This document shows positions 34,476 through 58,785 of a stretch of DNA of 64,000 nt, piece by piece. The notes beneath the pieces are model-generated. The model did not search any database. It saw nothing but the letters and a program-made list of their open reading frames with translations, and had not been told where the DNA came from. The position numbers were made by a program, and so were the translations under genes. Numbering within the stretch: the first letter of the stretch is position 1; every line of letters starts with the position of its first letter. The stretch spans positions 46,782-110,781 of the forward strand of contig JACRHJ010000013.1 in the NCBI GenBank assembly GCA_016212105.1, read 5' to 3'. Source of the DNA: Nitrospirota bacterium (GTDB lineage Bacteria; Nitrospirota; JACRHJ01).

Positions 34476-36161
34476 TTACGACTTCAGCTCCGACGCCTTC
34501 TTCCCGAGAGACCTGGCCTGGGAGGTGAGCACCTCCACCCCGTCGTTCATCCTGGCGACCAGGTCGACGTTGCCCACGACGCTGTCCTGTATGCGGGCCA
34601 CAAGTTCCTCTATCCTGGCGCTGTCGTCCAGCTGCGTCTTCACCGCGTGGCGCATCTGGCCCGTCATCTCCGAGACCTGGCCGACCGCGTCCTTCAGCCG
34701 CCGGCTGCCCTTCGCCTGCTCGACAGTGGACTTCCTCAGCGCCATCGACAGCTCTTTTATCTTCGAGGCCGAGAGCATGACGCCCTCGGCGGAACGCGCC
34801 TGCTCCTGGGTCGCACCGGAAATCTTCGACGTCATTTCCGCTATGCCAGCGACCGCCTGGCTCACCTGCATCACCTTGTCCACCTGCTCCGCCGTCGCCG
34901 AGGCTATCTCGCCGGTCACTTCCTTGGAGATGACGACGCCCTCGATGATCTTGCCCAGCGCCTCGCCCGCCCTTGCGGTCAGGACGACGCCCTCCTCGAC
35001 CCTGGCCTGGCCGGACTCCATGGACCTGACCGCGAGCGTGACGTCCCTCTGCACCGCCTTGATTATCTTCACGATCTCCTTGGTGGAGACGCCGGTCCTC
35101 TCCGCAAGCTCCTTTATCTCGTCCGCGACGACCGCGAAGGAGCGGCCCTGCTCGCCCGCCTGGGCCGCGATTATCGCGGCGTTCAGCGCGAGCAGGTTGG
35201 TCTTCTCGCTGACCTCCGCTATGACCTTGTTTATCTCGTCGATGGCCTTCGAGCTTCGCCCAAGTCTCCTGACCATCTCGGCCCCGCCCTCGACCTCTTC
35301 CCTTATGCGCTCCATGCCCTCGATGGTCTGCTGGACCGCCACCTTGCCGGTCTCGGCGTCCGAGACGACCTCCTCGGCTAGCTCCGCCGAGCGGCGGGTG
35401 TTCTTGTCCACCCGGGCGAACGAGACCTGAATGCTCTCGATGTTGGCATTGGTCTTTTTCGCCAGCGCGGCGAGCTGGTCCACGCTCCCGGCGGTCTCGA
35501 CTATGGACATCGCCATGCTGTCGGTCATCGAGGCGCTCTCGACGATGGAGTCGAACAGCGCGCCCGCAGAGGAGGAGACGTCCTCGACGGAAGCCGCGAG
35601 CTGGCTTACCGCCACCGCGCTCTCGGACGCCACGGACATCACGCGCTCCACGTTCTCGGAAATCATGCCGCCCGAGCCGTTCAGCTCGCGCATCGCCTCG
35701 GTCACTGTCTCGACCGAGCCTATCTGCGTCTCGGAGTAGTCGATCACCTCGCGGCAGCGCGCGGAGATGCCGTCGGCCGCGGCGAGCATGTCTGCGGAGG
35801 ACCTCTCGACCTCGCCGCCTATCCCGGCCATGCGTCCGGCCAGCCTGTCGAGCCCGGCCCTTATCGCGTCCAGCTCGTCGCGTCCGGAATCCTGAGATGC
35901 GCCGGGCGTCCCGGCCATCGCGTCCACCGCGCCGGACAGCCTGGAAAGCGGGCCTATGACGAGGAGCCCGAAGGCGTAGTACAAGGACGCGACGGCGAGG
36001 CCCGCCCCGAGCAGAGCCAGGAACGACACGGCCGTGACGGACAGCCCGTCGCCGTAGATGACGAGCGCCGCGCCGCCAGGCAGAAGGCCTATGGCGGCTG
36101 ACGCAGCGGCGGAGGCTATGAATTTGACGCCGAGGCCTTTACGGCGCATCTTGTTCTCCAC
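34476..36161 (-). CDS. Methyl-accepting chemotaxis protein (membrane-anchored, no large periplasmic domain)
   Basis: Two TM segments, HAMP-like region and an MCP signalling domain ([35 protein letters not shown]). Confidence 0.9.
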
Positions 36162-36414: not shown

Positions 36415-36948
36415 TCACGCGGGCGACTGCCCCGCGTCTCTTTTAGCAAGCTCCTCGGCCGCGACGAGCCCCTTCAGCTCGTCGCCGGTAAGAAGCCTGT
36501 CCACGTCGAGTATGACGATAAGCCTGTCGCCTACCTTGCCGACCCCGGTAAAGTACTCCGTGTCCGTGCCCTTGACGGTGTCCGGGGTCGCCTCCACGTT
36601 GTCGGAGTTCAGGTATATGACCTCGTAGACCTCGTCCACCACCATCCCGAGGACGCGCCCCTCGAGCCGGACGATAATGACCCGCACCTTCTTGGGGTCG
36701 CCGCCTTCGGAGTCCACGCCGAACCTCTTTCTGAGGTCTACGATGGGCACCACCTTGCCGCGCAGGTTCATGACCCCCTCGACGAACCGCGGCGCCCTCG
36801 GTATCTTCGTGACCTTCTGGGGCCTGATTATCTCCATGATCTTCATGATGTCCATGGAGTACTCCTCGCCCCCGACCTTGAAGACGGCGAGCTGCATCTC
36901 AGTAACCGCCCTCGAGGCCTCTTTCGGCCTGAGCCTGTCTATAGCCAT
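36415..36948 (-). CDS. cheW: Chemotaxis coupling protein CheW
   Basis: QLAVFKVGGEEYSMDIMKIMEII..., VEGVMNLRGKVVPIVDLRKRFG; 177 aa. Confidence 0.9.
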   Translation of the reverse strand: MAIDRLRPKEASRAVTEMQLAVFKVGGEEYSMDIMKIMEIIRPQKVTKIPRAPRFVEGVMNLRGKVVPIVDLRKRFGVDSEGGDPKKVRVIIVRLEGRVLGMVVDEVYEVIYLNSDNVEATPDTVKGTDTEYFTGVGKVGDRLIVILDVDRLLTGDELKGLVAAEELAKRDAGQSPA

Positions 36949-36961: not shown

Positions 36962-39859
36962 CTACTTGTATTCTATGCCGTAGATCTGCTTCATCATCTT
37001 CCGCACGCCCTCGTAGTCCGAGTCGGAAGACTTGACGAAGCCGTCGTACTCCGGGTCTATCGCCCGGAGCGCCTTCGCGGCGGCGGGGTCCGTGACCTTC
37101 ATGGCGGCCAGCGCCTCCCGCAGCTGCTCCCGCGTTGCCTTGTCCAGGTTCTTGCCGGCGACAACGTTGAAGTTCGGGATGTCTCCGGAGACGTGTACCA
37201 CGCGGAGCCCCTCCTCCTGGTGCTGCCTGGCGATGGACACCGCCATGCCGCCGGCGTCCGCGTCGCCCTCCAGCACCGCCCTGACCACCTCGTCCTGGCG
37301 GTGCATGTACTTGTATGACTTGAGGTCCTGGAGCTTGATCCCGGCCTCTGCCAGCACCGCCCTCGGCATCAGGTGCGAGGTCGAGGACTTCTCGTCCCCG
37401 AACGCGAACGTCCTGCCGGCGACGTCCGCGAGCGAGTTAACGCCGCTGCCCTCTCGCGTCGCGATCACCGAGTTCGTGGACGGGCGGCCCTTGGCGGACG
37501 CGGTGACGAGCACCTTTGCCCCGAACTTGTGCCTCGCCTCGACGTACGTTGTCGGGCTCATGTAGCAGATGTCCGTCCTGCCCTGCCCGAGGTCGTTCAC
37601 GGTCTCCGACATGTCGTGGCCGGCCACCACCTCGACCTTGACCCCGAGCCTGTCGGACAGGTACTCGGCGAGCGGGGTGAAGTGCCTCCTCATCGCTGAC
37701 GCGTCCTCTATCGGTATCACGCCCATCCGGAGCGTCTTGTCCGCGAGGTTGTATTCCGACATCAGCACGAAGTGGTTTATCTCCTCCCTGAGGACGTCTG
37801 CCTGCCTGGTCAGCTCCGTGACTGACTGGTCCATCTCGGACGCGAGCGTTACGGACTGAGCGGTTATGTCCCTTATCTTCTCTATCGCGCCTACTATCTC
37901 CTGGCTGCCCTTCCTCTGCTCGGACGTCGCGGAGGCTATGTGCTGCACCTTCTCGGAGACGTTCTCGACCGCCATCGTGATCTGCTTGCTGCCCTTGGCC
38001 TGCTCGGCCATCGCGTTACGCACCTGCTTGGCTATCTCGCTCATCTTCTCCGAGGCCATCATTATCTGCTCGGTGCCCTTCGCCTGCTCCTGCGTCGCCT
38101 TGAGTATGTGCTGCACCATGTCGCTGATGGACAGCATCGCGTCCGAGACCTGGCGTATCCCCTCGGCCTGCTCGACCGTCGCCTTCTCGATGCCCTTCGA
38201 CATGCTGGCCGACTTCGACGACGACTCGACTATCTTGACCAGCGCGTCCTTTGCCTCGTATGCTATCTTAACGCCCTGCTCGACGCTGTCGCGGCCGCTC
38301 TTTATGGACACGACCGCGTCCCTCGCCTCGGTCTGGACCGCGCCGATTAGCTTCGCTATCTCGGACGTGGACGAGGACGTCCGCTCCGCCAGGTCCTTTA
38401 TCTCGCTCGCCACGACCGCGAAGCCCTTGCCGTGCTCGCCCGCCTGGGCGGCGAGTATGGCCGCGTTAAGCGCGAGGAGCGACGTCTGGTCCGTGACCTC
38501 GTCGATGACGTTCAGTATCTCGCCTATCTCCTCCGAGCGGCCGCCGAGCTGCTCTATGACGTGCGCGGCCTTGACGACAGTGTCCTTTATCTCCTCCATG
38601 CCCTTTATGGTCTTCTCTACCGCCCTCATGCCGAGCTCAGACGCCTCGGCCGTGACCTTCTCGGACAGCCCGGTGGACTCTTTCGCCACCGACTCGACCT
38701 CCTTGATGGACGCGCCCATCTCTGTCGCGGACGCAGTGGTCTCCTCGGCCGCAGACGACAGGACGTCGACGTTCTCGGAGACCTGCCTGACCGTCGCGGC
38801 CATCTCCATGATGGAAGAAGACGTAGACTCGGTCGAGGCGGACAGGTCGTTCGTGATGCTCGCCACCTCGTCTATCGAGGCGGCCATCTCCATGATGGAA
38901 GAGGAAGACGACTCCGCGGAGGACGAGAGAGACTCGACGCTCTCCGCGACCTCGCGTATGGAGGCGTTCATCTCCTCCATCGACGAGGAAGTGGACTCCG
39001 TCAGCTCCTGCTGCACCAGCGCGCCCTCTGATATCTTCTTCGAGTTTATCGCTATCCGCTCTGTCGCGTTGGTCACGCTTATGGAGGCGTCCTTTACCTT
39101 GCCGAGCATGTTCTTGAGGTTCGCCACCATCGTGTTGATGGCGCCGCCGAGCGCGCCCAGCTCGTCCTCCGTCTTTACGTCTATGGTCTTGGTCAGGTCG
39201 CCCTTGGCGATCTGCGTCGCGGTCACCACGAGGTAGGATATCGGGTCCGTTATGAACCTCGTGATGAAGAACGTGAACGCGAAAATGGCGATGACCAGCG
39301 AGACGACGCCGATGAGCACCGACCTTTTCACAAGCTGGTCCTTCTTCGCGCCAAGCTCCTCGTAGCCGAGCCCCAGCCGGAGCGCGCCGATGTGCTTGTC
39401 CTCTGCGTCCTTGAGCGGTATGACGGCGTCGTAGTACTTCTTGTCCTTGTAGGTGAAGGTCCTGTACTTCCCCTCCTCCACCTCCTTGGCCGCAGCGGCG
39501 CTGACCGCGTCGTCCATAACCTTCCCGACCTGCCCCGGGTCGTCGGCGTAAAGCACCTTGCCGGCCGTGTCGGTGATGATGCAGTACCCGATGTTCTCGT
39601 GCTTCTGGGTAAGTACCATGCACTCGTCGCTCACGCCCTCCAGCGAGTCGAGCGTAAGCCCGAGGTTCAGCGCCTTGGACAGGTTGTTCCTGAACTCCTG
39701 CCCGACCACGAACGCCTTGTCCAGGAACGCGTCCGTGTAGCTGCTCGTGAACCCGTAGGTCAGCGCCACGGTCAGCAGTGTGACCACGAGCACCAGCATC
39801 CCGGTGACCATGCCGAGCGCCCTGAATTTCAGCGATTTAATGGTGAAGTCCAGCTTCAT
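36962..39859 (-). CDS. Methyl-accepting chemotaxis protein with a periplasmic sensor, HAMP, long MA domain and a C-terminal PhnD/SsuA-like substrate-binding (PBP) domain
   Basis: The periplasmic domain resembles the sensor of the kinase at 17447. MA domain ([34 protein letters not shown]). C-terminal ~270 aa: MGVIPIEDASAMRRHFTPLAEYLSDRLGVKVEVV...CYMSPTTYVEARHKFG...TFAFGDEKSSTSHLMP (phosphonate-binding-protein-like). Confidence 0.85.
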   Translation of the reverse strand: MKLDFTIKSLKFRALGMVTGMLVLVVTLLTVALTYGFTSSYTDAFLDKAFVVGQEFRNNLSKALNLGLTLDSLEGVSDECMVLTQKHENIGYCIITDTAGKVLYADDPGQVGKVMDDAVSAAAAKEVEEGKYRTFTYKDKKYYDAVIPLKDAEDKHIGALRLGLGYEELGAKKDQLVKRSVLIGVVSLVIAIFAFTFFITRFITDPISYLVVTATQIAKGDLTKTIDVKTEDELGALGGAINTMVANLKNMLGKVKDASISVTNATERIAINSKKISEGALVQQELTESTSSSMEEMNASIREVAESVESLSSSAESSSSSIMEMAASIDEVASITNDLSASTESTSSSIMEMAATVRQVSENVDVLSSAAEETTASATEMGASIKEVESVAKESTGLSEKVTAEASELGMRAVEKTIKGMEEIKDTVVKAAHVIEQLGGRSEEIGEILNVIDEVTDQTSLLALNAAILAAQAGEHGKGFAVVASEIKDLAERTSSSTSEIAKLIGAVQTEARDAVVSIKSGRDSVEQGVKIAYEAKDALVKIVESSSKSASMSKGIEKATVEQAEGIRQVSDAMLSISDMVQHILKATQEQAKGTEQIMMASEKMSEIAKQVRNAMAEQAKGSKQITMAVENVSEKVQHIASATSEQRKGSQEIVGAIEKIRDITAQSVTLASEMDQSVTELTRQADVLREEINHFVLMSEYNLADKTLRMGVIPIEDASAMRRHFTPLAEYLSDRLGVKVEVVAGHDMSETVNDLGQGRTDICYMSPTTYVEARHKFGAKVLVTASAKGRPSTNSVIATREGSGVNSLADVAGRTFAFGDEKSSTSHLMPRAVLAEAGIKLQDLKSYKYMHRQDEVVRAVLEGDADAGGMAVSIARQHQEEGLRVVHVSGDIPNFNVVAGKNLDKATREQLREALAAMKVTDPAAAKALRAIDPEYDGFVKSSDSDYEGVRKMMKQIYGIEYK

Positions 39860-39868: not shown

Positions 39869-40843
39869 CTACTTTATCACCTTCGTGGCGGCGTTCAGGA
39901 CGTCGAAGGGCACCTTGAGGCCCAGGGTGTTGGCCGCCTTGAGGTTCAGCACGAGGTCGACCCTCTTCGCGTTCTCGACCTCCATGCCGGACGGGGAACC
40001 GCCCTTGAGTATCTTCGCTACCTGTTCCGCGGCCGCCTCGCCCTGCTCCGCGGACGACGGCGCGAGCGCGAGGAGCGCGCCCTTCTCTGCCAGTCCGGCG
40101 ACCTGGGTCACGGCGGGCGTCTTGGCCTTGTTGGTAGCCCCGATAATGCCGACGGCCTCCCTGGACACGACCGCGCTGCACGAGATGTATACGCAGTCGG
40201 AGTCCTTGGCCGCCCCAGGCACCTTGCCCTTGACCTCGGAGGCGCTCCTGGCGGCGACCTCGCTCACCTGGAAGCCGAGGCCCGACGCGCTCTTCTTTAT
40301 CTCGTCGAGCTGCACCACGGAGTCCTTCTCGTCCGGGTTGTAGATTACCGCTATCTTCGCGAACGGCGTTATGGACTTGAGCGTCTTCAGGAGCGTGGTC
40401 ATCGGGACCTTCGAGCTGACCCCGGTCGAGTTGCCCTTCTTCAGCCCGCATGACTGCGGGTCGTAGACGTATGAGAAGACGACCGGTATGCTGGAGGTCT
40501 CCTTGAGCGCGGCGAGCGCGGCCGGCGCGCCGTAGGTGACGATGACGTCCACGCCGACGCCGACGAACTTCCTGACGCTGTTCGTCCAGGACATCGGGTC
40601 CGGGTTAGGGGTCTGGACGAATATCTCCACCTTGTTCTGGTCGAAGCCGTGCTTGGCGAGCGCGCCGACGAACGCCTTGTGGGCGTCCTGGTACCGCTGC
40701 ACGTCGCCGGACATCACGACCCCGATGGACTTTTCCGCCGCCTCCGCCCGCCCGGAGAATCCGAGCACAAGAAGGCATAGCAGCATCATGATTATTTTAT
40801 TCGACCGCATGGTCATCCTCCTGCCTGAAAATATGCATCGCAA
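39869..40843 (-). CDS. Periplasmic substrate-binding protein, COG2984 (ABC-type uncharacterised transport system) family
   Basis: Signal peptide, SIGVVMSGDVQRYQDAHKAFVGALAKHGF, PVVFSYVYDP, GNSTGVS. Start could be 40843, 40816 or 40810. Confidence 0.7.
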   Translation of the reverse strand: MRCIFSGRRMTMRSNKIIMMLLCLLVLGFSGRAEAAEKSIGVVMSGDVQRYQDAHKAFVGALAKHGFDQNKVEIFVQTPNPDPMSWTNSVRKFVGVGVDVIVTYGAPAALAALKETSSIPVVFSYVYDPQSCGLKKGNSTGVSSKVPMTTLLKTLKSITPFAKIAVIYNPDEKDSVVQLDEIKKSASGLGFQVSEVAARSASEVKGKVPGAAKDSDCVYISCSAVVSREAVGIIGATNKAKTPAVTQVAGLAEKGALLALAPSSAEQGEAAAEQVAKILKGGSPSGMEVENAKRVDLVLNLKAANTLGLKVPFDVLNAATKVIK

Positions 40844-40860: not shown

Positions 40861-42900
40861 CTACCAGTTCCTGGTCAGCAGCACGAGCACAGCCTGGGCG
40901 GTGCCGTCCTGGTCCCCGTCCTGGGGCTGGTCCTGCATGTCCTGGTAGTTGTTCAGGTTATAGCTCGCCTCGGCGCCCCAGCCGTTACGGAAGGCGTACT
41001 TCGCCGTCACGCCGCCGCCGGTCTCGCGGACCTTGAGGTTGGTGAGCGGGCCGATGTACGAGGACGAAACGCCCGCGTTCGCGACGCTTGTCCTGAACCG
41101 CCCCCTGGACCATGACTGGTGGAACTCCCCGTTCAGAGACAGCGGGAACGCGAACTCGTAGTCCGCGCCGAGCAAGTACATGTGGGACGTGTCCCTGTTT
41201 GTCACGTGGTCCTCGGTAGGCGCGGCGAAGGGAGGAAGGTTGAATTCCATCTCCTGGGCCTTCTTGTACCTCGTGTAGTCGTACGACGCGTTGAGCGAGA
41301 GCCTCTCGGCGGGCGTCCAGGACACGAGCGCGCCGACGTTGTCTCTCGACAGCCTCATCTCGGCGTTGTTGTTTTCGGCGCGGGTTATGCGGTAGTAGAG
41401 GTCAGCCGCGACGGACGTGGACGGCGTCCAGTCGACGTCGAACCTTCCCGTGAACTGTGTCTTGGGCCTTATCGCATAGGCCGGGTCGCTGTTGTACAGG
41501 CACTGCACCGCGCCCTTGGCCTTGAGGCTCCTGGACGGCCTTACGTCCACGCCGACCTTCACCGTATGCTGGTTCTCCTCGGACGGTATCGGCAGTATGC
41601 CGGGGATCGTGGGGTCGGTGTACCACACGACCTCCTTGTACCTCTCCTTCTTCTCGAACAGGTACTCGACCTTCATGCCGAACCAGTTGCACGGCGTGTA
41701 ACGCACCGTCGCCTCCGCCTTGTTCGTGCGGCTGTCTACCGCGTTCTTCGTGGGCCGGTTCTTTACGGCCGGCGCGCCCGGGTAGTTCGGCTCGAAGATA
41801 AAGTCCGGCGTCTCGGTGTCGAGCTCAAGGTAGCGGTAACGGAGCGCGACGGTCACATGCTCGAACGGCATCAGCGTCAGGTCCGTGTATGCGCGCCTGA
41901 AGTCCACTTTCGCGTCTGATATGTTGTTCTCCTTGCCGCCGTTGACGAACGTGGCCGAGCCGACTATCCTGCCGGTCAGGTCCGTGTGGGCCTTTACGGC
42001 GTCCTCGCTGGTCGTTATCTCCGGCATGAAGGCATGCTCGGCCGTGTAGGTTGTCGCGCCCACCCTGTACCTGTCGAACAGCGTCGTGTCTTTGTGGGAG
42101 TCGAACGTCTTTATACGGTGGGCGTACTCAAGCTCCACCGGGCCGAAATGGCCGTTGGCCCCGGCCCTGTACTGCCTGGTTATCCAGTCGATCGACCGCG
42201 TCTGGCCGTACTTGGCGCTGCCGGTGTCGCCCGGGTTCCTTGCGTAGAACCTCTTCTGGACGCTGCCCTCCTTCGTGAACTGGCGGAACTCGCCGAATAC
42301 ATGGTACGCCCTGTCCGGCCACTTGAGCCTCAGGTGGAGCCTGTTGTCGTGTACCGTCGCGTGGTATATGTCGTCCCCGCCCAGTTCGAAGTAGGTAGCC
42401 GCCGTCACCGGCTTTAAGTGGTCGAGGTTGTGCCAGAGGCCGAGGCCGATGTAGCTGAGCTTAACCGCATCTTTGTAAGCATACGCGAACTCGGTCTGGT
42501 AGTCGTACTGGTTCTTCATGTCCAGCTCCGCGTCGAACCGGTGCGGGAGCGGGCTGTAGTGGAGCTTGAACCCGCCGGTGACGCTCGAATGCGGCCACCC
42601 GAACTCCATGGCCCGGTTGGCCCCGTTCACGTCGACCACCCTCCCGCCAAGCCAGGTCCTGAATTCCGGCTCGAGGTTGAAGTGCATCGGCGGGAGTTCC
42701 GCTACCTCTTCCTCCCACGCGGCGGCCTCGTCCAGCGAGGCCGAGCCGTCTTCCTCCGCGACTGCGGCCGCGTCATCGGCGCCAGCCTCGGCGCCCGAGT
42801 AGTCCGCCGGCGTCTCGCCGCCCATTACCGGCGCGGCCACGCAGACGATAGATACAATCAGCAGTATATAAAGCAGGTTTTTCATTTTGTCGCCTCCCAA
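40861..42900 (-). CDS. Outer-membrane beta-barrel protein, candidate MtrB/PioB/MtoB-like porin partner of the adjacent decaheme cytochrome
   Basis: Signal peptide; 679 aa rich in alternating aromatic/polar beta-strand patterns (YxY, Y-rich loops). C-terminal ...VLVLLTRNW has the terminal aromatic typical of OMP barrels. Sits 16 nt downstream of the cytochrome. Confidence 0.55.
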   Translation of the reverse strand: MGGDKMKNLLYILLIVSIVCVAAPVMGGETPADYSGAEAGADDAAAVAEEDGSASLDEAAAWEEEVAELPPMHFNLEPEFRTWLGGRVVDVNGANRAMEFGWPHSSVTGGFKLHYSPLPHRFDAELDMKNQYDYQTEFAYAYKDAVKLSYIGLGLWHNLDHLKPVTAATYFELGGDDIYHATVHDNRLHLRLKWPDRAYHVFGEFRQFTKEGSVQKRFYARNPGDTGSAKYGQTRSIDWITRQYRAGANGHFGPVELEYAHRIKTFDSHKDTTLFDRYRVGATTYTAEHAFMPEITTSEDAVKAHTDLTGRIVGSATFVNGGKENNISDAKVDFRRAYTDLTLMPFEHVTVALRYRYLELDTETPDFIFEPNYPGAPAVKNRPTKNAVDSRTNKAEATVRYTPCNWFGMKVEYLFEKKERYKEVVWYTDPTIPGILPIPSEENQHTVKVGVDVRPSRSLKAKGAVQCLYNSDPAYAIRPKTQFTGRFDVDWTPSTSVAADLYYRITRAENNNAEMRLSRDNVGALVSWTPAERLSLNASYDYTRYKKAQEMEFNLPPFAAPTEDHVTNRDTSHMYLLGADYEFAFPLSLNGEFHQSWSRGRFRTSVANAGVSSSYIGPLTNLKVRETGGGVTAKYAFRNGWGAEASYNLNNYQDMQDQPQDGDQDGTAQAVLVLLTRNW

Positions 42901-42916
42901 GGTTGTACCGTAATGC

Positions 42917-43888
42917 CTACTTTAAGAAAACGCCCGGCCTGGTCGCGCTGTTGCTGGGCGAATCCGTGCCGTGTATCTCGGTGTGGCAGTCCGTGCAACG
43001 CGTGGCACGGTCGGTAGAGCCAGTGACCCTGTGGCTCTCGTGGCACTGGTAGCACAGGTACGGCATCTTGGACGTAAGCAGGCCGTCGTTCACCGAGCCG
43101 TGGGAGACGTGGCAGTTGCGGCAGTCCTCGGTCACGTCCGCGTGCTCGTAGGCGAACGGCCCCTCCTTCTCGGCGTGGCAGGCGGTGCAGACCTCCTTGA
43201 CCGTCGCCTCCCTCAGCTGCTTCTCGTTGGCCGTCCCGTGAGGGTCGTGGCAGTCGAGGCAGTTAACCCTCTGCTCCGGCACCGGGTGGTGCGTCGGGAG
43301 CGCGAATTCGGCCTTTATGTACTGGTGGCAGCTGTAGCATAGCTGTGCCACGTCCTTGGGGTGGACCTTGAGGTCGGCGCCCTTGTGGACCTTGTGGCAG
43401 TCGAAACAGGAGACGCCGGACATGTTGTGGACGCCGGAGTTCCAGTTGTGCAGGTTGAACGTCGCGTTGGACGAATGGCATTTCATGCATATCAGCGCCT
43501 GTGCCTGCTTGGGCAGGCCATCCAGGTCTATGAACGTCTCGTAATCACAGGTCTGCACGCCGTCCACGTCCTTGATGCCCTTTATCGCCAGACTCCCCGG
43601 CCCGTGGCAGGACTCGCAGTTGACCAGCGGCAGGCCGGACTCGGCCGAGAGCTGCGCGCCCATCGTTGACGCCTCGAAGTACTTCTTGTACTGGTCGTGG
43701 GCGTGGCACTTGGCCAGGCACGCCTGGTCGCCGACGTAGTCGGCGTCGAGACGGCCGACTATCAGCTTCTCGTACTCCTTCACCGGGATGATCGGCTTGC
43801 TTGCCATCATCGAGACGCAGCCCGTGACCGTAGCGAATACGGCGGCCGCGAACACAACCAGGAAAGGCCCTGTCCTCATACTCAGCAT
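42917..43888 (-). CDS. Decaheme c-type cytochrome (MtrA/PioA/MtoA-like, periplasmic/lipoprotein)
   Basis: Ten CXXCH motifs counted: CLAKCH, CESCH, CMKCH, CFDCH, CYSCH, CLDCH, CTACH, CRNCH, CYQCH, CTDCH. 323 aa; signal peptide with possible lipobox TVTGC. Confidence 0.9.
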   Translation of the reverse strand: MLSMRTGPFLVVFAAAVFATVTGCVSMMASKPIIPVKEYEKLIVGRLDADYVGDQACLAKCHAHDQYKKYFEASTMGAQLSAESGLPLVNCESCHGPGSLAIKGIKDVDGVQTCDYETFIDLDGLPKQAQALICMKCHSSNATFNLHNWNSGVHNMSGVSCFDCHKVHKGADLKVHPKDVAQLCYSCHQYIKAEFALPTHHPVPEQRVNCLDCHDPHGTANEKQLREATVKEVCTACHAEKEGPFAYEHADVTEDCRNCHVSHGSVNDGLLTSKMPYLCYQCHESHRVTGSTDRATRCTDCHTEIHGTDSPSNSATRPGVFLK

Positions 43889-44003: not shown

Positions 44004-46871
44004 CTACTGTATCCTCCGCACCATCTCCCTGACGCCGTCGTAGTCCGAGTCGCGGGACTCTATGAAGCCGGTGTAGTCCTTGTCGAGCGACGTGAGGATG
44101 AGCTTCTCCTCCGCGGACCTCGGCGAAAGCGAGGTGAGCGCGAGCTTCAGCTTGTCGGCGAGGACGGTGTCGAGGCCCGGCCTCGCGCAGAAGTTGAACT
44201 CCGGTATGTCGTCGGAGGTCTTTATGAACCGGAGGCCCTTCTCCTTGTACTGGTTCGCGGTGGTCTCCCTGAGGCCGCCCGCGTCCAGCTCGCCCAGGAG
44301 CACCGCCTTGGCCACGTCGTCGTGGTGGCCCAGGAAGCGGTACTCCCTGAGGTCCGTAAGCTTGACGCCCGCCTTGGCGAGCATGTAACGCGGCACCAGG
44401 TAGCTGGACGTGGACATCTCGTCGCCAAAGGCGAACGTCCGCCCCTTCAGGTCCTCGATGCGCTTGACGTCGCTGTCCTGCCTCGTGACTATCATCGTGT
44501 GGGTGTACGGGACGCCGTTCCTCATCGCCTTCGCGAGGAGCGACACTCCGTAATGCTCGTGCGCCTCTATGTACGTCGTCGGCGTCATGTAGCAGATGTC
44601 CGCGACCCCCGTGCCGACGTCCTTTACCGCGTCCGTGAACGACGAGGTGAGCTTGAAGACCACCTCGCGCCCGACCCTGCGGGAGAGGTACGCCGCGAGC
44701 GGCGAGAACTTCTTGTACATCTGGGCCGGGCTCTCCAGCGGCACCAGGCCGAGCTTGATTATCTCGGAGCCGGCCCCGGTAATCCTGAATGTGCCGACCT
44801 CGTCCTTCAGCTCCTCAATGTGCCTGGCGAGTTCCTCGACCGCGAGGCCCATCTCGGAGGCCAGCGTCTCGTTCTCGAGCGCGACGTCCCTGATGCGCTC
44901 GACCGAGCGGACCATGTCCTCGCTGCCCTTCCTCTGCTCGTTAATCGCGTTCGCTATGTGCTGGGCCTGCTGGTTGGTGTTCTCGACCGCCATTATTATA
45001 AGGTCGGAGCCCTTGGACTGCTCGGCGGTCGCGGTCCGTACGTGCCTCGCCACCTCCTTGACCTTGTCCGCCTCGCGCAGTATCTGGTCGGAGCCCTGCG
45101 TAAGCTCGGACGTCGCCCGCTGTATGGACTGGACTATGTCCCTGGTGTTGACCATCGCCTCGGCGACACGCTTGGCGCCCTCCGCCTGCTCCATCGTCGC
45201 GTCCTCTATCCGCTTGGACATCTCGGAGGACTGCGCCGACGACTTCACTATACCCTCCAGCACGTCCTTGGCCTGGTAGACGACGGCCTGGCCCTCCTCG
45301 ACCGCGGCCTTGCCGGACTCCATCGCCTGCACCGCCTCGGAGGCCTCGGCCTGGACGGTGGCGATGAGCTTGGAAATCTCCTGCGTGGACGACGCGGTCC
45401 TCTCCGCCAGGTCCTTTATCTCGTCAGCGACCACCGCGAATCCCTTGCCGTGCTCGCCCGCCTGGGACGCGAGTATGGCAGCGTTCAGCGACAGAAGCTC
45501 CGTCTGGTCGGTGACCTCGTCTATGACGTTCAGTATCTCGCCTATCTGGCGCGAGCGGCCGCCGAGCCGGTTGATGACCTCAGCCGAGCGGTTGACCTCG
45601 TTCTTGATCTTGCTCATTCCCTCGATGGCGCGCTCCATCGCCCCCATACCGAGCCTCCGGGCGTCGGTCGTGACCTTCTCCGAGAGCTGGGCCGACTCCT
45701 TGGCCGCGCCCTCGACGTCCCTGATGGAGTTCGCCACACGCGTGATTGACTCCACGCTCGTGTCGGCCGCGTCCGACAGGACTCCGACGTAGCGCGAGAC
45801 CTCACGGATGGACGCGGTTATCTGGCTGATGGACGAGACGGTCGAGTCTACCGAGGACGACAGCACCGCCGCGCTCCCCGCGATCTCGTCTATCGAGGCG
45901 GTCATCTCCAGTATCGAGGACGACGTGGACTCAGCCGAGTAGTACAGGCTGTCCGCGGACTCCGCTACGCCCTTTATCGAGGCGTTTATCTCCTCGATGC
46001 CGCCGGACGAGGACTCGACCGCGCGCGCCTGGACGTGCGCGCCCTCCGCCACCTTTGCAGAGTTGACGACTATCTGCGTAGAGACCGAGCCGACCTGGTA
46101 GCTCATCCGGTTTATCCTCTGGACGACCCTCTGGACGCTGTCTATGAAACTGTTGAAGCTCCCGGCGAGCTGCCCCATCTCGTCCTTCGACCCGGACTCC
46201 ATGCGGTATGTGAGGTCCTTGTCCCTCTCCATCTGTGTCATGACGCCGACCGCCTTCTCTATCGGTGAAAGCACGACTCTCCTGAGCCAGAGCGCGAGCA
46301 GGAGCGCGACAAGCGCGATCGCGGCAAACGCGTTCAGTATCGCCATGAGCTTGTGGTCCTTGATGTCGGCGTAGACCTTCTCGAGCGAGACGGATACGGC
46401 GAGGACGCCCTGGTACTTGTGGTCGCTCCCGTGGCAGCCCTGGCAGCTCTCCTCGTTCACGAGCGGCTTGAAGAGCGTCAGCGACCGCTTGTCCTTCAGC
46501 TCGGAGACGATGCCCGTCGCGAGCGCCTCCCTCACCCTTGCTTCGACGTCGGCGGGCGGGTCGGGGTAGCCCGCGTCGAGGTATATCTCGTCGCCGTCCT
46601 TGTTGAAGACGCGGACCTCCTTTATGCCGGACACAGTCCTCAGCTCCGAGACCATACCGCTCGCGGACTCCGGCTGGCCGGTGTTCATGACCGTCTTCAT
46701 ACTCGATATGATGGCCGAGGCCAGAAGCTCCGTCTTCGAGTGGTTGGCGGCGAGCAGCTCGGTCTCCTCCTTCTGGAGCGTCATGTATACGAGGAGCCCG
46801 AACCCGCCCATGAGCGTGGCCACGACTATCGCTATAATCTTGGTCTGCATGCGGCTGATGAACATTTTCAC
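44004..46871 (-). CDS. Methyl-accepting chemotaxis protein with a heme-c (CXXCH) periplasmic sensor domain and a C-terminal PhnD/SsuA-like PBP domain
   Basis: TM1 [19 protein letters not shown]; ~140-aa periplasmic domain containing SCQGCH (nt 46445..46431), DUF3365/Tll0287-like; TM2; HAMP; MA domain; C-terminal [35 protein letters not shown]...[16 protein letters not shown]. Paralogous to 36962..39859, with >85% nt identity across parts of the MA domain. Confidence 0.85.
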
Positions 46872-47773
46872 CCTTCCATAGCCAGGATGCGGCCTGTGTT
46901 TAGGAGTATCAGAAGCCGGTCGCCCATGCGGCCGACGCCCTGTATGTATTCCGCCTCGACGCCGCCTATAACGGCGGGCGGGGGCTCAATAGTCTTCATC
47001 GGGAACCTCACGACCCCCGTCACCTTGTCCACGATGACGCCCTGCGGCATGCCCTCCTCGGACACGACGACTATGCGCGTCGCCCTCGTGTGCTCTGCCT
47101 CATCGAAGCCGAGCCGCTTCTTTATGTCGAACACCGGGATTATCACGCCGCGAAGCGATATTATGCCCCTGACGAAGCCCGGCGCCCTCGGGACGTCCGT
47201 TATCTTCTGGAGCCTTATTATCTCGAGCACGTCCTCGACCCGGACCGCGTACTCCTCGCTGCCGAGACGGAACGCGAGGTACTCGACCACGGCGTCTCCG
47301 GTGTCGGCGGCCTCGCCCGGCCCGTCGTCCACCGCGTGAGGGGGCGGAGACGGAGGCTCGTCGGCGGGCGGCTGGTCCCAGACGGGCGGCTCTTCGGGGG
47401 CCTCGGGTCCCGGGACGTCTTCCATCAGATCGCCGGCGGCACCGAATGGCAGAGGCCCGTCCTCGGACAGCGTCAGGAACATGTCGCCAAGCTCCGCATC
47501 GTCTTCGGGCTCCGGCTCAGACTCCGGGACTGGCTCCGTCGCCTTTGCCTTCTTGCGCCCGGCACCGGCCTTTTTCCTTTTCGGTTTGGGTTCCGGCACG
47601 GCGGACGCCACGGGGACGGCGGGCGCACCGCCCTCGTCCGTCACCGGATCGGCTTCCAGCGACGTTGCCGTCTCTTCGGCGGACACTTCAGCCGGGCCGG
47701 CCGCGTCCTTCGCTGCCTCCGCTTCCGCGTCCTTCAGCCCCTTGGCCTTCTTTCTTATCTCAAGCAGGTCCAT
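46868..47773 (-). CDS. cheW: CheW-like protein with ~170-aa disordered Pro/Glu/Ala-rich N-terminal extension
   Basis: C-terminal CheW domain ([58 protein letters not shown]). Overlaps the MCP start by 4 nt. Confidence 0.85.
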
Positions 47774-48579
47774 CAGCCCTCCAGCCCGAGGTCACGGGCC
47801 GCGTCTTCCACCATGGCGCGCGCGACGACCGCCGCGCCAGCGCCCATCCCCGACAGAAGCGCCCCGGTGGCGATGTTGTTTATCACCCTCGGTATCCCGC
47901 CGGAGAACCTGTGTATCGCCTCGACAGCGCCCTCGTCGAAGAGGTCTTCCTCCCTGCCCGCGACCCCGGCCCTGTGCCGGAGGTAGCTCGCCGTGTCATC
48001 GAGGCCGAGCGGTTCGAGGTGGTAGCTCATCCCTATCCTCTGCCGGAGCGCGTCGTAGGCGGGCCGTTTCAGCCGGGCGCGAAGCTCCGGCTGCCCGATG
48101 ATGACCAGGGCGAGCAGGTTCCTGTCGTCCAGCTGGTAGTTCGTGAGGAGGCGTATCTCCTCGAACGTGTCCTTGCCGGGTATGAGCTGGGCCTCGTCGA
48201 CTATTACCACGGGGCAGACGCCCTCCTCGTACATCCTGTAAAGCGCGTCGTTTATCTGCTCCAGCAGGTCGGTCTTGAAATGCTTCGGCCTCTCGACGCC
48301 GAGCTGCCTGGCGAGCATCCGCAGGAGCTGGGCAGGGGAGAGCCTCGGGTTTATGATGAGGAGCGGCCTGTACGACTCGTCCAGCGAGTCGATAAGGGCG
48401 CGCGACAGCGTCGTCTTCCCGGAGCCTATGCCGCCGGTCAGGAGCGCGAAGTCACGCTCCTCGACCGCGTACTGGAGGCGCGCGAGCGCCTCCGCGTGGC
48501 CCTTGCTCATGAAAAGGAACGACGGGTCGGGCGTCTTCGAGAAACACCTCGCCTTCAGGCCGTAGAACTCCTCGTACAT
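47773..48579 (-). CDS. ExeA/GspA-like AAA ATPase (AAA_22, COG3267)
   Basis: ALLTGGIGSGKTTLSRAL (Walker A), VVIVDEAQ (Walker B); 268 aa. Embedded between cheA and cheW. Confidence 0.75.
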   Translation of the reverse strand: MYEEFYGLKARCFSKTPDPSFLFMSKGHAEALARLQYAVEERDFALLTGGIGSGKTTLSRALIDSLDESYRPLLIINPRLSPAQLLRMLARQLGVERPKHFKTDLLEQINDALYRMYEEGVCPVVIVDEAQLIPGKDTFEEIRLLTNYQLDDRNLLALVIIGQPELRARLKRPAYDALRQRIGMSYHLEPLGLDDTASYLRHRAGVAGREEDLFDEGAVEAIHRFSGGIPRVINNIATGALLSGMGAGAAVVARAMVEDAARDLGLEG

Positions 48580-48858: not shown

Positions 48859-50841
48859 CTACCTTCTCAGCGTCGCTTCGTCTATCAGCGCCTCGACGTC
48901 CAGCACAAGCACGACCTCGTTGTCGCCGAGCTCGGTCGCACCGGCTATGCCCGGCACGTTCTTCAGCTTCTCGCCTATGCTCTTTATGACTATCTCCTGC
49001 TGACCGACGAGCCTGTCCACCACAAGCCCGAGCCGCCTCTCCGCGATGCCGACTACTACCACGTAGAGGTAGTCGCCCGCGTCTGACTTGGGCAGGCTGA
49101 ACACGCGGTCGAGCCACAGAAGCGGCAGGGTCTCTCCCCTGAGCGAGACGACCTCGCGCTTCTCGATCGTGGTTATCCTGTCCCTCGTTATCATCAGGGA
49201 CTCTAGGACGGACGACAGCGGCACCGCGAACGTCTCGGCCGAGACGTCCACTATCAGCGCCTTGATGATGGCGAGAGTTATGGGCAGCGTTATCGTGAAC
49301 TTCGTCCCCACGCCTATCTCGGTCTCGACGTCTATCATGCCGGAGAGCCTTGATACGTTCTTCTTCACAACGTCCATCCCGACGCCGCGCCCGGAGACCT
49401 CGCTGACCTTCTCCGACGTGGAAAACCCGGGCATGAATATGAAGTCCATTATCTCGCGCTTCGACAGGACGTCCGACTCCTTTATAAGCTCCCTCTCGAC
49501 CGCCTTCCTCCTGACCTTCTCGTGGTCTATGCCGCCACCGTCGTCCTCGACGGTTATCACGACACGGTTCCCCTTGGGGAAGGCGTCCAGCCTGATGGTG
49601 CCCCTCTCCGGCTTGCCGCGCCTCGCCCTTACCTGGGCGGCCTCTATGCCGTGGTCTATCGAGTTCCGGATGAGGTGCATCAAGGGGTCGGACATGTCCT
49701 CGACCATCAGCTTGTCGAGCTCCGTGTCCTCGCCGGACATCTCGAGGTCTATGTCCTTGCCGACGTCGCCGGCGTACTTCCTGACCGCCTGGGTCAGCCT
49801 CGTGAATATCTGGCCGATGGGCACCATCCTGACCTCTATCACGCCCTCCTGAAGCTCGCCGAGCTTACGCTCGAACGTCCGGGTGGCCTTGTGGAGGTCC
49901 ACCGCGATGCCGGTGAAGCCGTGCAGGCCGCGCAGGTCTTTGCTAAGCTGGGATATTATGTTCTTGGAGAGCACCAGCTCGCCGACGATGTTCATCAGGT
50001 GGTCGAGCCGGCTAATGTCCACGCGGACGGTCTTCGACAGGCTCTTGATGGTCGGCGAGGCGGCCTCGGAGGCGGCCTTCTTCTCCTCCGCCTTGTACTT
50101 TATCTCTACGACCTCCGCGCCCAGGCCGCCGACTTCCTCGACCAGCCTGTCCATAGTGGACTTCGTGCCCATCAGGAGGTTGAACTCGATGCCCATGTCC
50201 GGGCTCATCCCGGAGGACGGGAGCGTGCTGATTATCTCGCCCAGGGACTTCAGCTTGTCGTTCAGCGCTGTCAGGTCCTTGTCGAAGGTCATAAGGTCGA
50301 ACCGGGCCTTGACGAGGAATATCCCGTTCTTCGCCTTTACGTTCTCCTTCAGGCGGTGCTCCTCGTACTCCGTCAGGACCGCGACCAGTGCCGGGTCTAT
50401 GGCAAGCTCGTCCACCGGCGACTTCTTGTCCGCCCCGCCGCCGCCCGTCATCGCGGCCTCTATCACGGCGGCGATGTCCGTGGTGTCCGCGCGCTCGAAC
50501 CCGCTCCGGCTTATGTCCTCGGACAGCTCCTTCAGCCGGTCGAGCGCCTGGAAGATGGCCTGCGTGACCTCCGGCGTGATGGGCACCTTGCCGAGCCGGA
50601 GCGCGTCCAACAGCGACTCGAGCTTGTGCGACAGGGTCGAGACACCCGTGAACCCGAACATGCCGGACAGCCCCTTCAGCGAGTGGACGCCCCGGAATAT
50701 CGCGTTCACCACGTCCGGGTCCACCGAGCCGGCCTCGACCATCGCCTCCATCTGGATGAGGTGCTGGTTGAGGTCCTCGAGTATGTCCTCGGCCTCGGCC
50801 AGGAACTCGCCTTTTGACCGTTCGTCTTTTTCTGACGCCAA
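48859..50841 (-). CDS. cheA: Chemotaxis histidine kinase CheA
   Basis: P1/Hpt (FRGVHSLKGLSGMFGF), dimerisation domain, HATPase (DDGGGID, GRGVGMDVV) and C-terminal CheW-like domain. TTG start 50841 with GGAGA 8 nt upstream. Confidence 0.9.
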   Translation of the reverse strand: MASEKDERSKGEFLAEAEDILEDLNQHLIQMEAMVEAGSVDPDVVNAIFRGVHSLKGLSGMFGFTGVSTLSHKLESLLDALRLGKVPITPEVTQAIFQALDRLKELSEDISRSGFERADTTDIAAVIEAAMTGGGGADKKSPVDELAIDPALVAVLTEYEEHRLKENVKAKNGIFLVKARFDLMTFDKDLTALNDKLKSLGEIISTLPSSGMSPDMGIEFNLLMGTKSTMDRLVEEVGGLGAEVVEIKYKAEEKKAASEAASPTIKSLSKTVRVDISRLDHLMNIVGELVLSKNIISQLSKDLRGLHGFTGIAVDLHKATRTFERKLGELQEGVIEVRMVPIGQIFTRLTQAVRKYAGDVGKDIDLEMSGEDTELDKLMVEDMSDPLMHLIRNSIDHGIEAAQVRARRGKPERGTIRLDAFPKGNRVVITVEDDGGGIDHEKVRRKAVERELIKESDVLSKREIMDFIFMPGFSTSEKVSEVSGRGVGMDVVKKNVSRLSGMIDVETEIGVGTKFTITLPITLAIIKALIVDVSAETFAVPLSSVLESLMITRDRITTIEKREVVSLRGETLPLLWLDRVFSLPKSDAGDYLYVVVVGIAERRLGLVVDRLVGQQEIVIKSIGEKLKNVPGIAGATELGDNEVVLVLDVEALIDEATLRR

Positions 50842-51172: not shown

Positions 51173-51550
51173 TCAGACCGTCACCCCCAGCACCTTCTTG
51201 ATAAGTTCCTGCAGGTCCTCGCCCTTGAACGGCTTGACTATGTAGCCCGAGGCCCCGAGGGCAAGGCCCCGCCTGCGGTCCTCCTCGCTCTTTTCGGTGG
51301 AGACCACGATGAGCGGTATGGACTTGTAGTTGGGGTGGCCCTTGACGAAGCTGATAAGCTCCAGTCCGTTTATGTCGGGCATGTTTATGTCGGTGATTAT
51401 CAGGTCGAACTGGTGGGACGGGAGCGCCTTCAGCGCGTCGAAACCGCTTCCGGCCTCATGGGTGACGAAGCCTGGCAGGGCCTCGACCGTCGCCCGGATG
51501 AGACCCCGCATCGCCTTCGAATCCTCTACTATAAGGACTTTCCTGGTCAT
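51173..51550 (-). CDS. cheY: CheY-like single-domain response regulator
   Basis: KVLIVEDS...DLIITDINMPDINGLE...K; 125 aa. Confidence 0.85.
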   Translation of the reverse strand: MTRKVLIVEDSKAMRGLIRATVEALPGFVTHEAGSGFDALKALPSHQFDLIITDINMPDINGLELISFVKGHPNYKSIPLIVVSTEKSEEDRRRGLALGASGYIVKPFKGEDLQELIKKVLGVTV

Positions 51551-51594: not shown

Positions 51595-52827
51595 CTACGT
51601 ATTCTTTTCCTTCAGCCTCTCAAGTTCCATAATCTTTCTTTCGAGCAGGGCCTTCTCCATTGCGAGGCCCGCCTGGTACACGAATATCTCAAGGCCGGCG
51701 ATGTTCGGGACCGGCTTCCTGTCCGGGAGGTTGTCCCCGTACAGGAGCGCCACGACCCTGTCGTTGCTGACCAGGGGTATCAGGAAGAACTCCTCCGGCT
51801 CGCTGCCGCCCAGCTCCTTGACGAGGTATGCGTCCCACGCGGTGTGCGAAAACCTCCCGAGCATCGACCTCTTGTTGGCAACCACCTCCGTGAAGATGGA
51901 CTTCTCGGAGACCGGGACGCGTATCTGTCTTACCCTGTGGTCGGCTGAGGCCTCCTTCAGCTCTATGCCGAACTGCCCCAGCCCCTTTACGTCCTCGCGG
52001 GTGACCATGAACAGGACCGAGCGGTTCACGACCTCGCTCGCGTACCGGAGGACGAGGAGCGTTATCTCCGCGGTCGCGGTCGGGAACCTCAGCTCCTCGA
52101 ACATCGACTTCAGCGTGCTCATCTCGCGGGAACGGTCGAGGGCCGCCCTCTCCTCGCCGGAGACCTTCGTGGAGGACGGGGCCATGCCCTGCTCCTCCAG
52201 GAAGTCGGAGAACTCCGAGGCCGCCTTCTTCTTGGCGTTGTCCGGCGCGACCCTGGGCTCCGGGAAGGCCTCGACGGTCTGGGCCGCCTTGGCCTTCGCC
52301 GCAACCTTGCCGTCCCGCTTCTTCTCGTCCATCACCCGGGCGCCTTCCATCAGAAGGTACTCGGGGTTCAGCCCGGCCTTGAGCAGGAACTCCTGCGTCA
52401 CGACCTCTATCTTGTCGCCGGGCGTGACCTCGCCCAGGTCGAAGTTGAAGAACCCGTCCTCCCAGGAAAGCAGGGAGTAAATCATGTTCTCTATCTGGCC
52501 GCGGATCGTGTCCTCTAAGTCCTGCTGCCCGAGGTAGCCCATCTCGACCAGTATCTGGCCGAGACGGATCCCGCCGCCCAGCTTCTTCTGCGTGTCGAGC
52601 GCGCGGGTCAGGTCCCGTTCGTTTATCAGGCCCTTGGATATAAGTATGTTGCCGAGCGTGTCGCGCAGGTTGTCCGTCGCGGCCTGGATGACCTGGCCGT
52701 CCCTGAACACGACGACGGCGGCCCCGGCCTTGCTCTTCAGTACCAGGGTGCCGGTCTTCTTGCTCAGGCTTATTATCTGAAATATATCCGCAAGCGCCAG
52801 GTCTTCCAGACGCCCAACAAGGCTCAT
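51595..52827 (-). CDS. DUF4388-domain protein with C-terminal GAF-like region
   Basis: N-terminus MSLVGRLEDLALADIFQIISLSKKTGTLVLKS (the DUF4388 signature GxLxxhxLxDlhQ). 410 aa. Confidence 0.6.
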   Translation of the reverse strand: MSLVGRLEDLALADIFQIISLSKKTGTLVLKSKAGAAVVVFRDGQVIQAATDNLRDTLGNILISKGLINERDLTRALDTQKKLGGGIRLGQILVEMGYLGQQDLEDTIRGQIENMIYSLLSWEDGFFNFDLGEVTPGDKIEVVTQEFLLKAGLNPEYLLMEGARVMDEKKRDGKVAAKAKAAQTVEAFPEPRVAPDNAKKKAASEFSDFLEEQGMAPSSTKVSGEERAALDRSREMSTLKSMFEELRFPTATAEITLLVLRYASEVVNRSVLFMVTREDVKGLGQFGIELKEASADHRVRQIRVPVSEKSIFTEVVANKRSMLGRFSHTAWDAYLVKELGGSEPEEFFLIPLVSNDRVVALLYGDNLPDRKPVPNIAGLEIFVYQAGLAMEKALLERKIMELERLKEKNT

Positions 52828-52866: not shown

Positions 52867-52895
52867 ATTATATCACCCGTCAAACCGTTTGGCAA
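52867..52895 (-). promoter_or_regulatory. Putative sigma70 promoter (TTGCCA-17-TATAAT, minus strand) upstream of the DUF4388 gene
   Basis: Minus strand reads gTTGCCAaacggtttgacgggtgaTATAATcac. Confidence 0.35.
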
Positions 52896-57718: not shown

Positions 57719-57724
57719 AATCTA

Positions 57725-57885: not shown

Positions 57886-57887
57886 TT

Positions 57888-58772: not shown

Positions 58773-58785
58773 AAGTAACGTGTCT

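Follow-up and report, generated by a model that had tools for sequence, protein, structure and literature searches.

A Nitrospirota bacterium carries, in the middle of a chemosensory gene cluster, two genes that make up a porin-cytochrome module resembling MtrA/MtrB. This module was found in a stretch of 64,000 nucleotides (positions 46,782 to 110,781 of contig JACRHJ010000013.1, assembly GCA_016212105.1; hereafter the window) and consists of the gene for a decahaem c-type cytochrome followed by that for a large outer-membrane β-barrel protein. The two genes encode an outer-membrane conduit of the MtrA/MtrB type, which may act as a sensor of redox conditions outside the cell instead of being devoted to respiration alone. 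The sequences show which parts are present, in what order they are encoded and that the gene cassette is conserved; the seating of the cytochrome in the barrel and the passage of electrons are predicted. An earlier note on this region, made from the sequence alone, had described such a two-gene module at 40861-43888, with proteins of 323 aa and 679 aa. The two open reading frames (ORFs) are indeed located there, at 42917-43888 and 40861-42900; both are on the minus strand, the cytochrome coming first. The module was confirmed: the cytochrome exceeds the cut-off of the DmsE family, and the best match of the barrel among solved structures is MtrB. The chemosensory-operon setting, and the binding protein and signal transducer that follow the pair, had been overlooked.

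The identity of the pair is not new, as both proteins have been named by NCBI in a near-identical Nitrospirota metagenome-assembled genome (MAG). What appears to be undescribed is that such a conduit is placed, in a conserved manner, within signalling cassettes, and in the literature searched we found no description of an MtrAB-like pair in a chemosensory or two-component cassette.

The pair is part of an apparent chemosensory operon

The pair is situated mid-way in a minus-strand chemosensory cluster of about 26 kb, which extends from about 52.8 kb to 27.1 kb of the window. In the direction of transcription, the cluster comprises genes for a PATAN protein, CheY, CheA, an AAA_22 ATPase, CheW, a first methyl-accepting chemotaxis protein (MCP1), the cytochrome, the barrel, a PF04392 protein, MCP2, a second CheW, MCP3, a hybrid histidine kinase, a HEAT-repeat protein, CheR, CheB and a GAF-domain protein. 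The chemosensory set is complete within this one cluster, with CheA, CheW, MCP, CheR and CheB plus a receiver protein. Near the pair the genes either overlap or are separated by only 9-31 nt, apart from 115 nt that precede the cytochrome gene, and all are encoded by a single strand; the barrel gene lies 16-31 nt downstream of the cytochrome gene. No strong same-strand terminator was found inside the cluster. The pair and the chemosensory genes form one transcription-like unit.

The cassette is conserved in related loci

To describe the conservation of this arrangement, we used 80 metagenomic loci obtained by a scan with the cytochrome alignment, the cytochromes of which are 54-74% identical, and seven loci carrying the barrel subfamily from GTDB species genomes. 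Among the species genomes, Nitrospirota MAGs were the only ones in which this subfamily turned up. Every GTDB locus of sufficient length shows the order CheA-AAA22-CheW-[MCP1]-cytochrome-barrel-PF04392-MCP2-CheW-...-HEAT-CheR, and this order is maintained even though the barrel, the fastest-evolving part, falls to 36-47% identity as compared with 58-74% for its neighbours.

In the metagenomic loci, the barrel gene directly follows the cytochrome gene in 58 of 58 cases. The gene for the PF04392 protein comes after the barrel gene in 47 of 50 loci, which makes it the most constant partner of the pair. Further downstream, the count was limited to the 41 of the 80 loci with at least 5.5 kb of downstream sequence. 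The binding protein is present in 39 of these 41 loci. Next in order, 30 of the 41 have a chemoreceptor, 7 a secreted PhnD-like protein and a hybrid histidine kinase, 2 a PhnD-like protein only, and 2 nothing. A transducer of either the MCP or the histidine kinase type is therefore present in 37 of the 41 loci (~90%). The CheA-AAA22-CheW genes were found upstream in 16 of the 28 loci with enough upstream sequence. The cytochrome, the barrel, the PF04392 protein and an sCache_3_2 chemoreceptor make up a four-gene cassette, which in one locus (L095) stands by itself away from che genes. Bare cytochrome-barrel pairs, with no signalling gene, also occur (L011, L012 and L071).

In the cassettes of the kinase type, as exemplified by locus L013 (11026-17101), the decahaem cytochrome, the barrel and the PF04392 protein are followed by a secreted PhnD-like protein and a hybrid histidine kinase, and che genes are lacking. 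The same type was observed in L027, L037, L042, L046, L064, L065, L076, L083, L085 and L090. The front end of the cassette is thus conserved while being joined to two types of transducer, MCP and histidine kinase, which argues for an input module. A single sensor domain shared by both cassette types was considered and rejected, as the histidine kinases of the kinase type show no detectable sCache similarity.

Directly upstream of the decahaem cytochrome, three variants were distinguished: a haem-c receptor (4 loci), CheW itself (7 loci), and an MtrC-like cytochrome (31 loci, all of a sister clade). The latter is a lipoprotein of ~740 aa with 9 CXXCH motifs and 1 CX3CH motif, which matches PF22113 (MtrC/MtrF domain II/IV) with 60.9 bits against a cut-off of 30, and its gene lies between those for CheW and the decahaem cytochrome (L034, 7736-9958; also, for example, L019, L038, L063 and L077). 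The sister clade carries a full MtrCAB-like trio inside a chemosensory cluster, and it is the absence of MtrC that sets the clade of the window apart. That the window has no MtrC-like outer cytochrome, as the earlier note had observed, holds true: no second multihaem ORF was found in its 64 kb, and the only other sizeable ORF with a CXXCH motif is the adjoining chemoreceptor gene MCP1.

The cytochrome belongs to the DmsE family

The cytochrome had been thought to contain ten CXXCH motifs. The number of haem sites is indeed ten, but only nine of them are CXXCH; the first site, at residues 57-62, is a CX3CH motif (CLAKCH) that is kept in all 16 relatives of the cytochrome alignment. In the same alignment, ten non-motif histidines are invariant or nearly so and are available as distal ligands. 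The protein scores 241.2 bits (E=1.2e-71) with TIGR03508, the DmsE family of decahaem cytochromes, against a curated cut-off of 192.2 bits, and by this cut-off it is a member of the family. In line with this, NCBI lists the identical protein as ‘DmsE family decaheme c-type cytochrome’. The second-best NCBIfam match, to the GSU2203 family (NF041028), reached 221.5 bits and is under the cut-off of 325 bits. MtrA in the Mtr complex of Shewanella baltica (PDB 6r2q chain A) aligns with residues 53-313 (E=5.4e-41), from the first haem motif to past the tenth. The proposal that the cytochrome is of the MtrA kind is upheld.

The cytochrome gene has a strong ribosome-binding site (AAGGAGG) 6 nt before its ATG. 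Since the hydrophobic segment at the N-terminus of the protein ends in VTG-C24, and G23-C24 is invariant in the 16 relatives, we read this region as a lipoprotein-type signal with Cys24 as the predicted lipobox cysteine. In this respect the protein differs from Shewanella MtrA, which has a soluble periplasmic-type precursor. A membrane-anchored quinol dehydrogenase of the NapC/NrfH type, which would have contradicted the earlier proposal, was rejected: the NrfH model (TIGR03153) gave only 29.9 bits where 134.2 are required, the protein has ten haem sites, and its hydrophobic segment is followed by the lipobox cysteine.

The barrel represents a branch of the MtrB/PioB superfamily

The length of 679 aa given for the barrel protein corresponds to the maximal ORF. 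Translation probably starts at Met6 (ATG at 42885), giving 674 aa; this start is favoured because the near-identical NCBI record calls the same one and because Met6 is nearly invariant in the alignment of 24 homologues. A signal peptide, β-strand periodicity and a terminal aromatic residue had been noted earlier. The protein contains one hydrophobic segment, located at the N-terminus, and an acidic stretch of low conservation; its terminal tryptophan (W679) is invariant in the 24 homologues. An AlphaFold2 model built from these homologues, of moderate quality (mean predicted local distance difference test score, pLDDT, of 66.9), shows about 23-25 strands in residues 145-677, where about 26 would be expected of a barrel wide enough for a decahaem cytochrome. 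Residues 17-168 have pLDDT values below 50 and are not modelled, despite the conservation of residues 78-161. When the model was used in a Foldseek search, the top match was MtrB (6r2q_B; E=4.6e-13), and the runner-up was weaker by seven orders of magnitude.

At the level of sequence, the relationship to named families is more distant. The earlier note had recommended a comparison with the MtrB/PioB model TIGR03509, and the barrel fails it, with 39.7 bits against a cut-off of 240.05; in this, and in having no match in a PDB sequence search, it is unlike Shewanella MtrB. The best NCBIfam match, to the GSU2204 family (NF041027), amounts to 76.9 bits and is also under its cut-off of 350 bits. PF11854 was not reported for the window barrel at E≤1; precomputed PF11854 matches exist for several homologues and are faint wherever they are marked. 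A profile search of 1.84 billion representatives returned 518 members of the barrel family at E≤1e-3, of which 194 at E≤1e-30. Of 67 sampled representatives, all 67 matched NF041027 and 15 matched TIGR03509, none of them near either cut-off. When a 40-sequence barrel profile was used to look for relatives among named Geobacter or canonical MtrB proteins, the search yielded the same 24 proteins. By the cut-offs, the barrel is a member of neither the TIGR03509 nor the GSU2204 family and is classed at the superfamily level only. On these scores it belongs to a branch of the MtrB/PioB superfamily that has no name, and it is closer to OmcL (GSU2204) of Geobacter than to canonical MtrB. By definition, members of the GSU2204 family are CXXCH-containing (seleno)proteins, whereas CXXCH is absent from the window barrel and from 47 relatives. 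The scores of the barrel for the alginate, Pel and porin families (PF24604 and PF02530) are below the thresholds, and such an identity, the second that would have spoken against the earlier proposal, was rejected.

The pair had also been suggested to resemble the iron-oxidiser type, i.e. MtoAB of Sideroxydans and Gallionella or PioAB of Rhodopseudomonas palustris. These systems share with it the AB-only arrangement of a DmsE-family decahaem cytochrome and a barrel. However, no MtoD, CymA/MtoC or PioC-like partner (the latter a high-potential iron-sulfur protein, HiPIP) is adjacent to the window pair, the context is a sensory one, the barrel is nearer to the GSU2204/OmcL branch, and no sequence evidence ranks the pair closer to MtoAB or PioAB than to MtrAB or OmcKL. 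As the label was based on the absence of mtrC alone, it is left without specific support.

Receptors and binding protein beside the conduit

MCP1, encoded immediately upstream of the cytochrome, has a periplasmic haem-c sensor domain with a CQGCH motif. This sensor matches PDB 3b42 (GSU0935; E=9.2e-11) and 3b47 (GSU0582; E=1e-6) of Geobacter, and the CQGCH motif is aligned with CQSCH of 3b42. The sensor domains of GSU0935 and GSU0582 have been proposed to act as redox-potential switches (PMC8396549). MCP1 differs from these homologues in that it has an additional C-terminal PhnD-like domain (PF12974) and in that its gene adjoins an outer-membrane haem conduit, which suggests what might reduce or oxidise it.

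MCP2 combines a periplasmic sCache_3_2 sensor with the same C-terminal PhnD-like domain, and in related loci a receptor of this type is kept directly after the binding protein. MCP1 and MCP2 contain exactly two hydrophobic segments each, those of MCP2 being located at 10-40 and 175-207. As there is no membrane segment between the signalling hairpin and the PhnD-like domain, the latter is taken to be cytoplasmic in both receptors. When fused to a receptor, the PhnD-like domain is thus cytoplasmic, whereas in the kinase-type cassettes it is a secreted stand-alone protein.

Between the barrel and MCP2, a TrpX-like periplasmic binding protein of family PF04392 is encoded. No ABC permease or ATPase was found in the cluster, and the protein is therefore considered an orphan binding protein. 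Solved members of its family bind aromatic amino acids, and orphan solute-binding proteins beside chemoreceptors are commonly indirect ligand sensors (PMC10443332). A redox-active disulfide or a haem site in this protein was considered and rejected, as there is no conserved cysteine among 55 sequences.

A possible role in redox sensing

On the grounds of synteny, the conduit can be viewed as the trans-outer-membrane input of a redox-sensing pathway, a proposition that we regard as evenly poised. We are somewhat more hesitant about the further idea that the haem wire is a sensory antenna of MCP or histidine kinase pathways, an ‘electroreception’ module distinct from respiratory extracellular electron transfer (EET).

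In such a pathway, a lipid-anchored decahaem cytochrome would be sheathed by the large barrel, with no dedicated outer MtrC-like cytochrome. The haem chain would come into equilibrium with extracellular redox-active matter (for example Fe/Mn minerals, Fe(II) or humics) and pass on its redox state over the outer membrane into the periplasm. Two periplasmic readouts, which may operate together or as alternatives, can be envisaged. In the first, the haem-c sensor of MCP1 would exchange electrons directly, haem to haem, with the conduit; MCP1 is the obvious candidate reader, because its gene adjoins the conduit immediately upstream. In the second, the binding protein would dock on the sCache sensor of MCP2. 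The receptors would then modulate CheA, and the output via CheY and the PATAN protein with its cyclic di-GMP (c-di-GMP) motif would more likely concern surface behaviour or matrix production than flagellar steering. This output is suggested only by the PATAN/c-di-GMP, HEAT and PEP-CTERM-ATPase-like proteins and by the glycosyltransferase genes further along.

Several observations weigh against this proposal. MCP1 is present in part of the clade only (the window, L003/L004 and L014-L016) and therefore is not a universal reader. The universal partner, the PF04392 protein, has neither a conserved cysteine nor a haem motif, and its solved relatives bind aromatic amino acids. Furthermore, no similarity to the sCache sensor was detectable in the histidine kinases of the kinase-type cassettes. 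A respiratory conduit, with a pathway that merely steers the cells to its substrate, would also be expected to be co-transcribed with che genes, and the evidence is wholly genomic.

Alternative explanations

The main rival explanation is that the conduit is respiratory, serving Fe(II) oxidation or the reduction of Fe(III), Mn(IV) or humics, and is co-transcribed with a taxis system without being a sensor itself. The che system would then steer the cell to useful places, either by energy taxis or by a soluble cue perceived through the binding protein. This is quite possible, though on balance we consider it rather unlikely. The parts of the pair are homologous to respiratory MtrAB, and their nearest curated relatives, GSU2203 and GSU2204 (OmcK/OmcL), which occur in Geobacter and in syntrophic sulfate reducers, are considered to form a porin:cytochrome conduit for EET from two genes, without a third cytochrome (PMC10553843). 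The latter two are induced on hematite and magnetite (PMC4070692). In addition, the MtrC/MtrF-like 10-haem lipoprotein directly upstream of the decahaem cytochrome in the sister clade makes up an MtrCAB-like trio, and some relatives (the bare pairs mentioned above) lack any signalling gene. However, no quinol dehydrogenase, periplasmic shuttle cytochrome, HiPIP or cupredoxin is encoded in the window. A respiratory conduit would also have no obvious need for the orphan binding protein or for the MCP or histidine kinase transducer that accompany the pair in most loci, and the pair is positioned at the middle of the che operon rather than at its edge.

Much less probable, in our view, is a role in ligand uptake and sensing, in which the barrel would admit a small molecule that the PF04392 protein binds and presents to the sCache receptor, with the cytochrome serving as a redox-controlled plug or modifying the ligand, for example by reducing a metal chelate or a quinone. 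The afore-described sensing function of orphan binding proteins near chemoreceptors, and the constancy of this partner, would fit such a role, as would the fast evolution of the barrel, which is expected of a surface-exposed specificity determinant. On the other hand, transporter genes were not found nearby, and a chain of ten haems would be a costly plug. In the MtrCAB structure (6r2q), which is the sole relative with a solved structure, the lumen of the barrel is filled by the cytochrome, which also counts against uptake through it.

Lastly, we consider it most improbable that the pair is a DmsEF-type conduit supplying a terminal reductase outside the cell, the gene for which would be located in another part of the genome. 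In favour of this, the top-scoring curated family (TIGR03508) bears the DmsE name; against it, that name covers MtrA, MtrD, PioA and MtoA alike, and no molybdopterin or Fe-S reductase genes were found in the window or in ~90 related loci with the queries used.

Comparison with known systems

The window module would work like MtrAB and OmcKL, while its membership in the respective families differs by component. With Shewanella MtrCAB (6R2Q) it shares the cytochrome-then-barrel order, the DmsE-family decahaem cytochrome, MtrB as the best solved match and the terminal aromatic residue; it is unlike MtrCAB in lacking mtrC, in the CX3CH form of its first haem motif and in being located inside a che operon with a PF04392 protein. 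With OmcK/OmcL it shares the two-gene unit of cytochrome and barrel, but both window proteins score under the curated cut-offs of these families (325 and 350 bits).

Outer-membrane barrels that report an external state to an inner-membrane transducer are known from FecA-FecR signalling and from the lipoprotein RcsF, which is threaded through OmpA/C/F. The likeness is one of analogy only, not of homology, and in the window module the signal would be electrons passing along a haem chain, instead of the binding of a ligand or a disturbance of lipids.

With respect to the che genes, the cluster resembles HEAT-repeat-containing chemosensory clusters of delta-proteobacteria, namely the Che7 cluster of Myxococcus, which includes a HEAT protein, and the ‘beta group’ clusters of Geobacter, all of which combine CheA, CheW, CheR and CheB with non-canonical extra genes. 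Such clusters are thought to govern matrix production or development rather than swimming; those of the beta group are described as lacking mcp genes, and no conduit is reported from them (PMC2577667).

Other genes of the cluster and the window

The features of the cluster are listed in Table 1. Apart from the difference described here, the NCBI contig of the near-identical Nitrospirota MAG (L001) is 97-100% identical to the window. The hybrid histidine kinase is encoded by one ORF of 657 aa in the window, and by two genes (427 aa and 148 aa) at positions 18499-20474 of L001, which reflects either a frameshift or an assembly difference, so that the window and this record are not identical. The gene for the AAA_22 ATPase is found between those for CheA and CheW in all related loci. 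The c-di-GMP motif of the PATAN protein and the PEP-CTERM-ATPase-like protein hint at matrix or surface behaviour, over swimming, as an output of the cluster.

Table 1. Features of the chemosensory cluster, in order of transcription. Coordinates refer to the window; scores are given with the family cut-off where available.
Feature	Coordinates	Strand	Size	Evidence and remarks
Sigma-70-like promoter match, extended -10	52867..52895	minus		Best of the region, 11/12; consensus match only; just upstream of PATAN gene
DUF4388/PATAN protein, MshE-like c-di-GMP-binding motif	51595..52827	minus		PF14332; NF053729 49.5 bits vs 38; first gene of apparent operon
CheY-like single-domain response regulator	51173..51550	minus		ORF; corresponding L001 gene carries PF00072
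CheA histidine kinase (Hpt, dimerisation, HATPase, CheW domains)	48859..50841	minus		Pfam
AAA_22 ATPase, XrtA/PEP-CTERM-associated ATPase-like	47773..48579	minus		PF13401; TIGR03015 238.6 bits, below 324.5
CheW1	46868..47773	minus		PF01584, E=3.1e-36; 4-nt overlap with MCP1 start
MCP1 chemoreceptor (haem-c (CQGCH) periplasmic sensor, HAMP, MCP signalling domain, C-terminal PhnD-like domain)	44004..46871	minus		PF21563 47.4 bits vs 27
Decahaem c-type cytochrome, DmsE/MtrA family, predicted lipoprotein	42917..43888	minus	323 aa	TIGR03508; PDB 6r2q_A; motif count
MtrB-like outer-membrane β-barrel, acidic disordered N-terminus, terminal Trp	40861..42900 (likely start 42885)	minus	679 aa (maximal ORF) / 674 aa	
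Orphan periplasmic binding protein, TrpX-like, signal peptide	39869..40843	minus		PF04392, E=4.5e-43; PDB 3lkv, E=6.7e-33
MCP2 chemoreceptor (periplasmic sCache_3_2 sensor, HAMP, MCP signalling domain, C-terminal PhnD-like domain)	36962..39859	minus		Pfam
CheW2	36415..36948	minus		PF01584, E=3.9e-40
MCP3 chemoreceptor, membrane hairpin, without periplasmic domain	34476..36161	minus		PF00015; hydrophobic segments only within residues 9-73
Hybrid histidine kinase (HAMP-PAS-HisKA-HATPase-receiver)	32476..34449	minus		Pfam
HEAT-repeat protein (NblB/CpcE-like)	30199..32184	minus		PF13646; NblB/CpcE-like scores below cut-offs; conserved in related loci
CheR methyltransferase	29310..30194	minus		PF01739, PF03705
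CheB methylesterase with receiver domain	27997..29070	minus		PF01339, PF00072
GAF-domain protein, last gene of cluster	27104..28003	minus		GAF_3, GAF_2; overlaps CheB stop

Beyond the che cluster, a polysaccharide-type gene set is encoded on the minus strand at 56387-63846. It comprises genes for a MiaB-like radical-SAM enzyme, two family-2 glycosyltransferases, a mannose-1-phosphate guanylyltransferase/isomerase, a sulfatase and a methyltransferase. On the other side of the cluster (24717-26676, minus strand), an AAA_15/AAA_21 ATPase of 453 aa was matched to HEC-01A, a candidate defence protein of PADLOC (E=1.3e-54); its overlapping partner of 215 aa has no Pfam or PADLOC match. The GC content drops to 0.52-0.54 at 24-28 kb, and the ATPase and its partner probably represent a defence island inserted beside the che cluster. 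On the plus strand, a GAF-GAF-GGDEF diguanylate cyclase (15073-17271) is followed by a second hybrid histidine kinase with an sCache_3_2-HAMP-GAF architecture (17447-20119). Its sensor is of the same type as that of MCP2, and neither a binding protein nor a conduit adjoins its gene.

Implications for extracellular redox sensing

It has long been asked how bacteria locate electron acceptors and donors that are insoluble, and how they respond to them. The present explanations are indirect ones, namely chemotaxis towards released Fe(II), or energy taxis in which the cell reads its own metabolism. A conduit wired to a receptor would represent a direct and testable mechanism for extracellular redox sensing. 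If the respiratory explanation is right, the pair is merely one further MtrAB-like pair that had already been annotated automatically. If, instead, the conduit is the input of a sensory pathway, the cells would gain access to the redox state of material that is insoluble or extracellular and that they cannot import, and would convert it into CheA or two-component signalling. MtrAB-type conduits would then have been recruited for signalling, and the ‘EET genes’ in metagenomes of Nitrospirota and similar uncultured bacteria would need to be reinterpreted.

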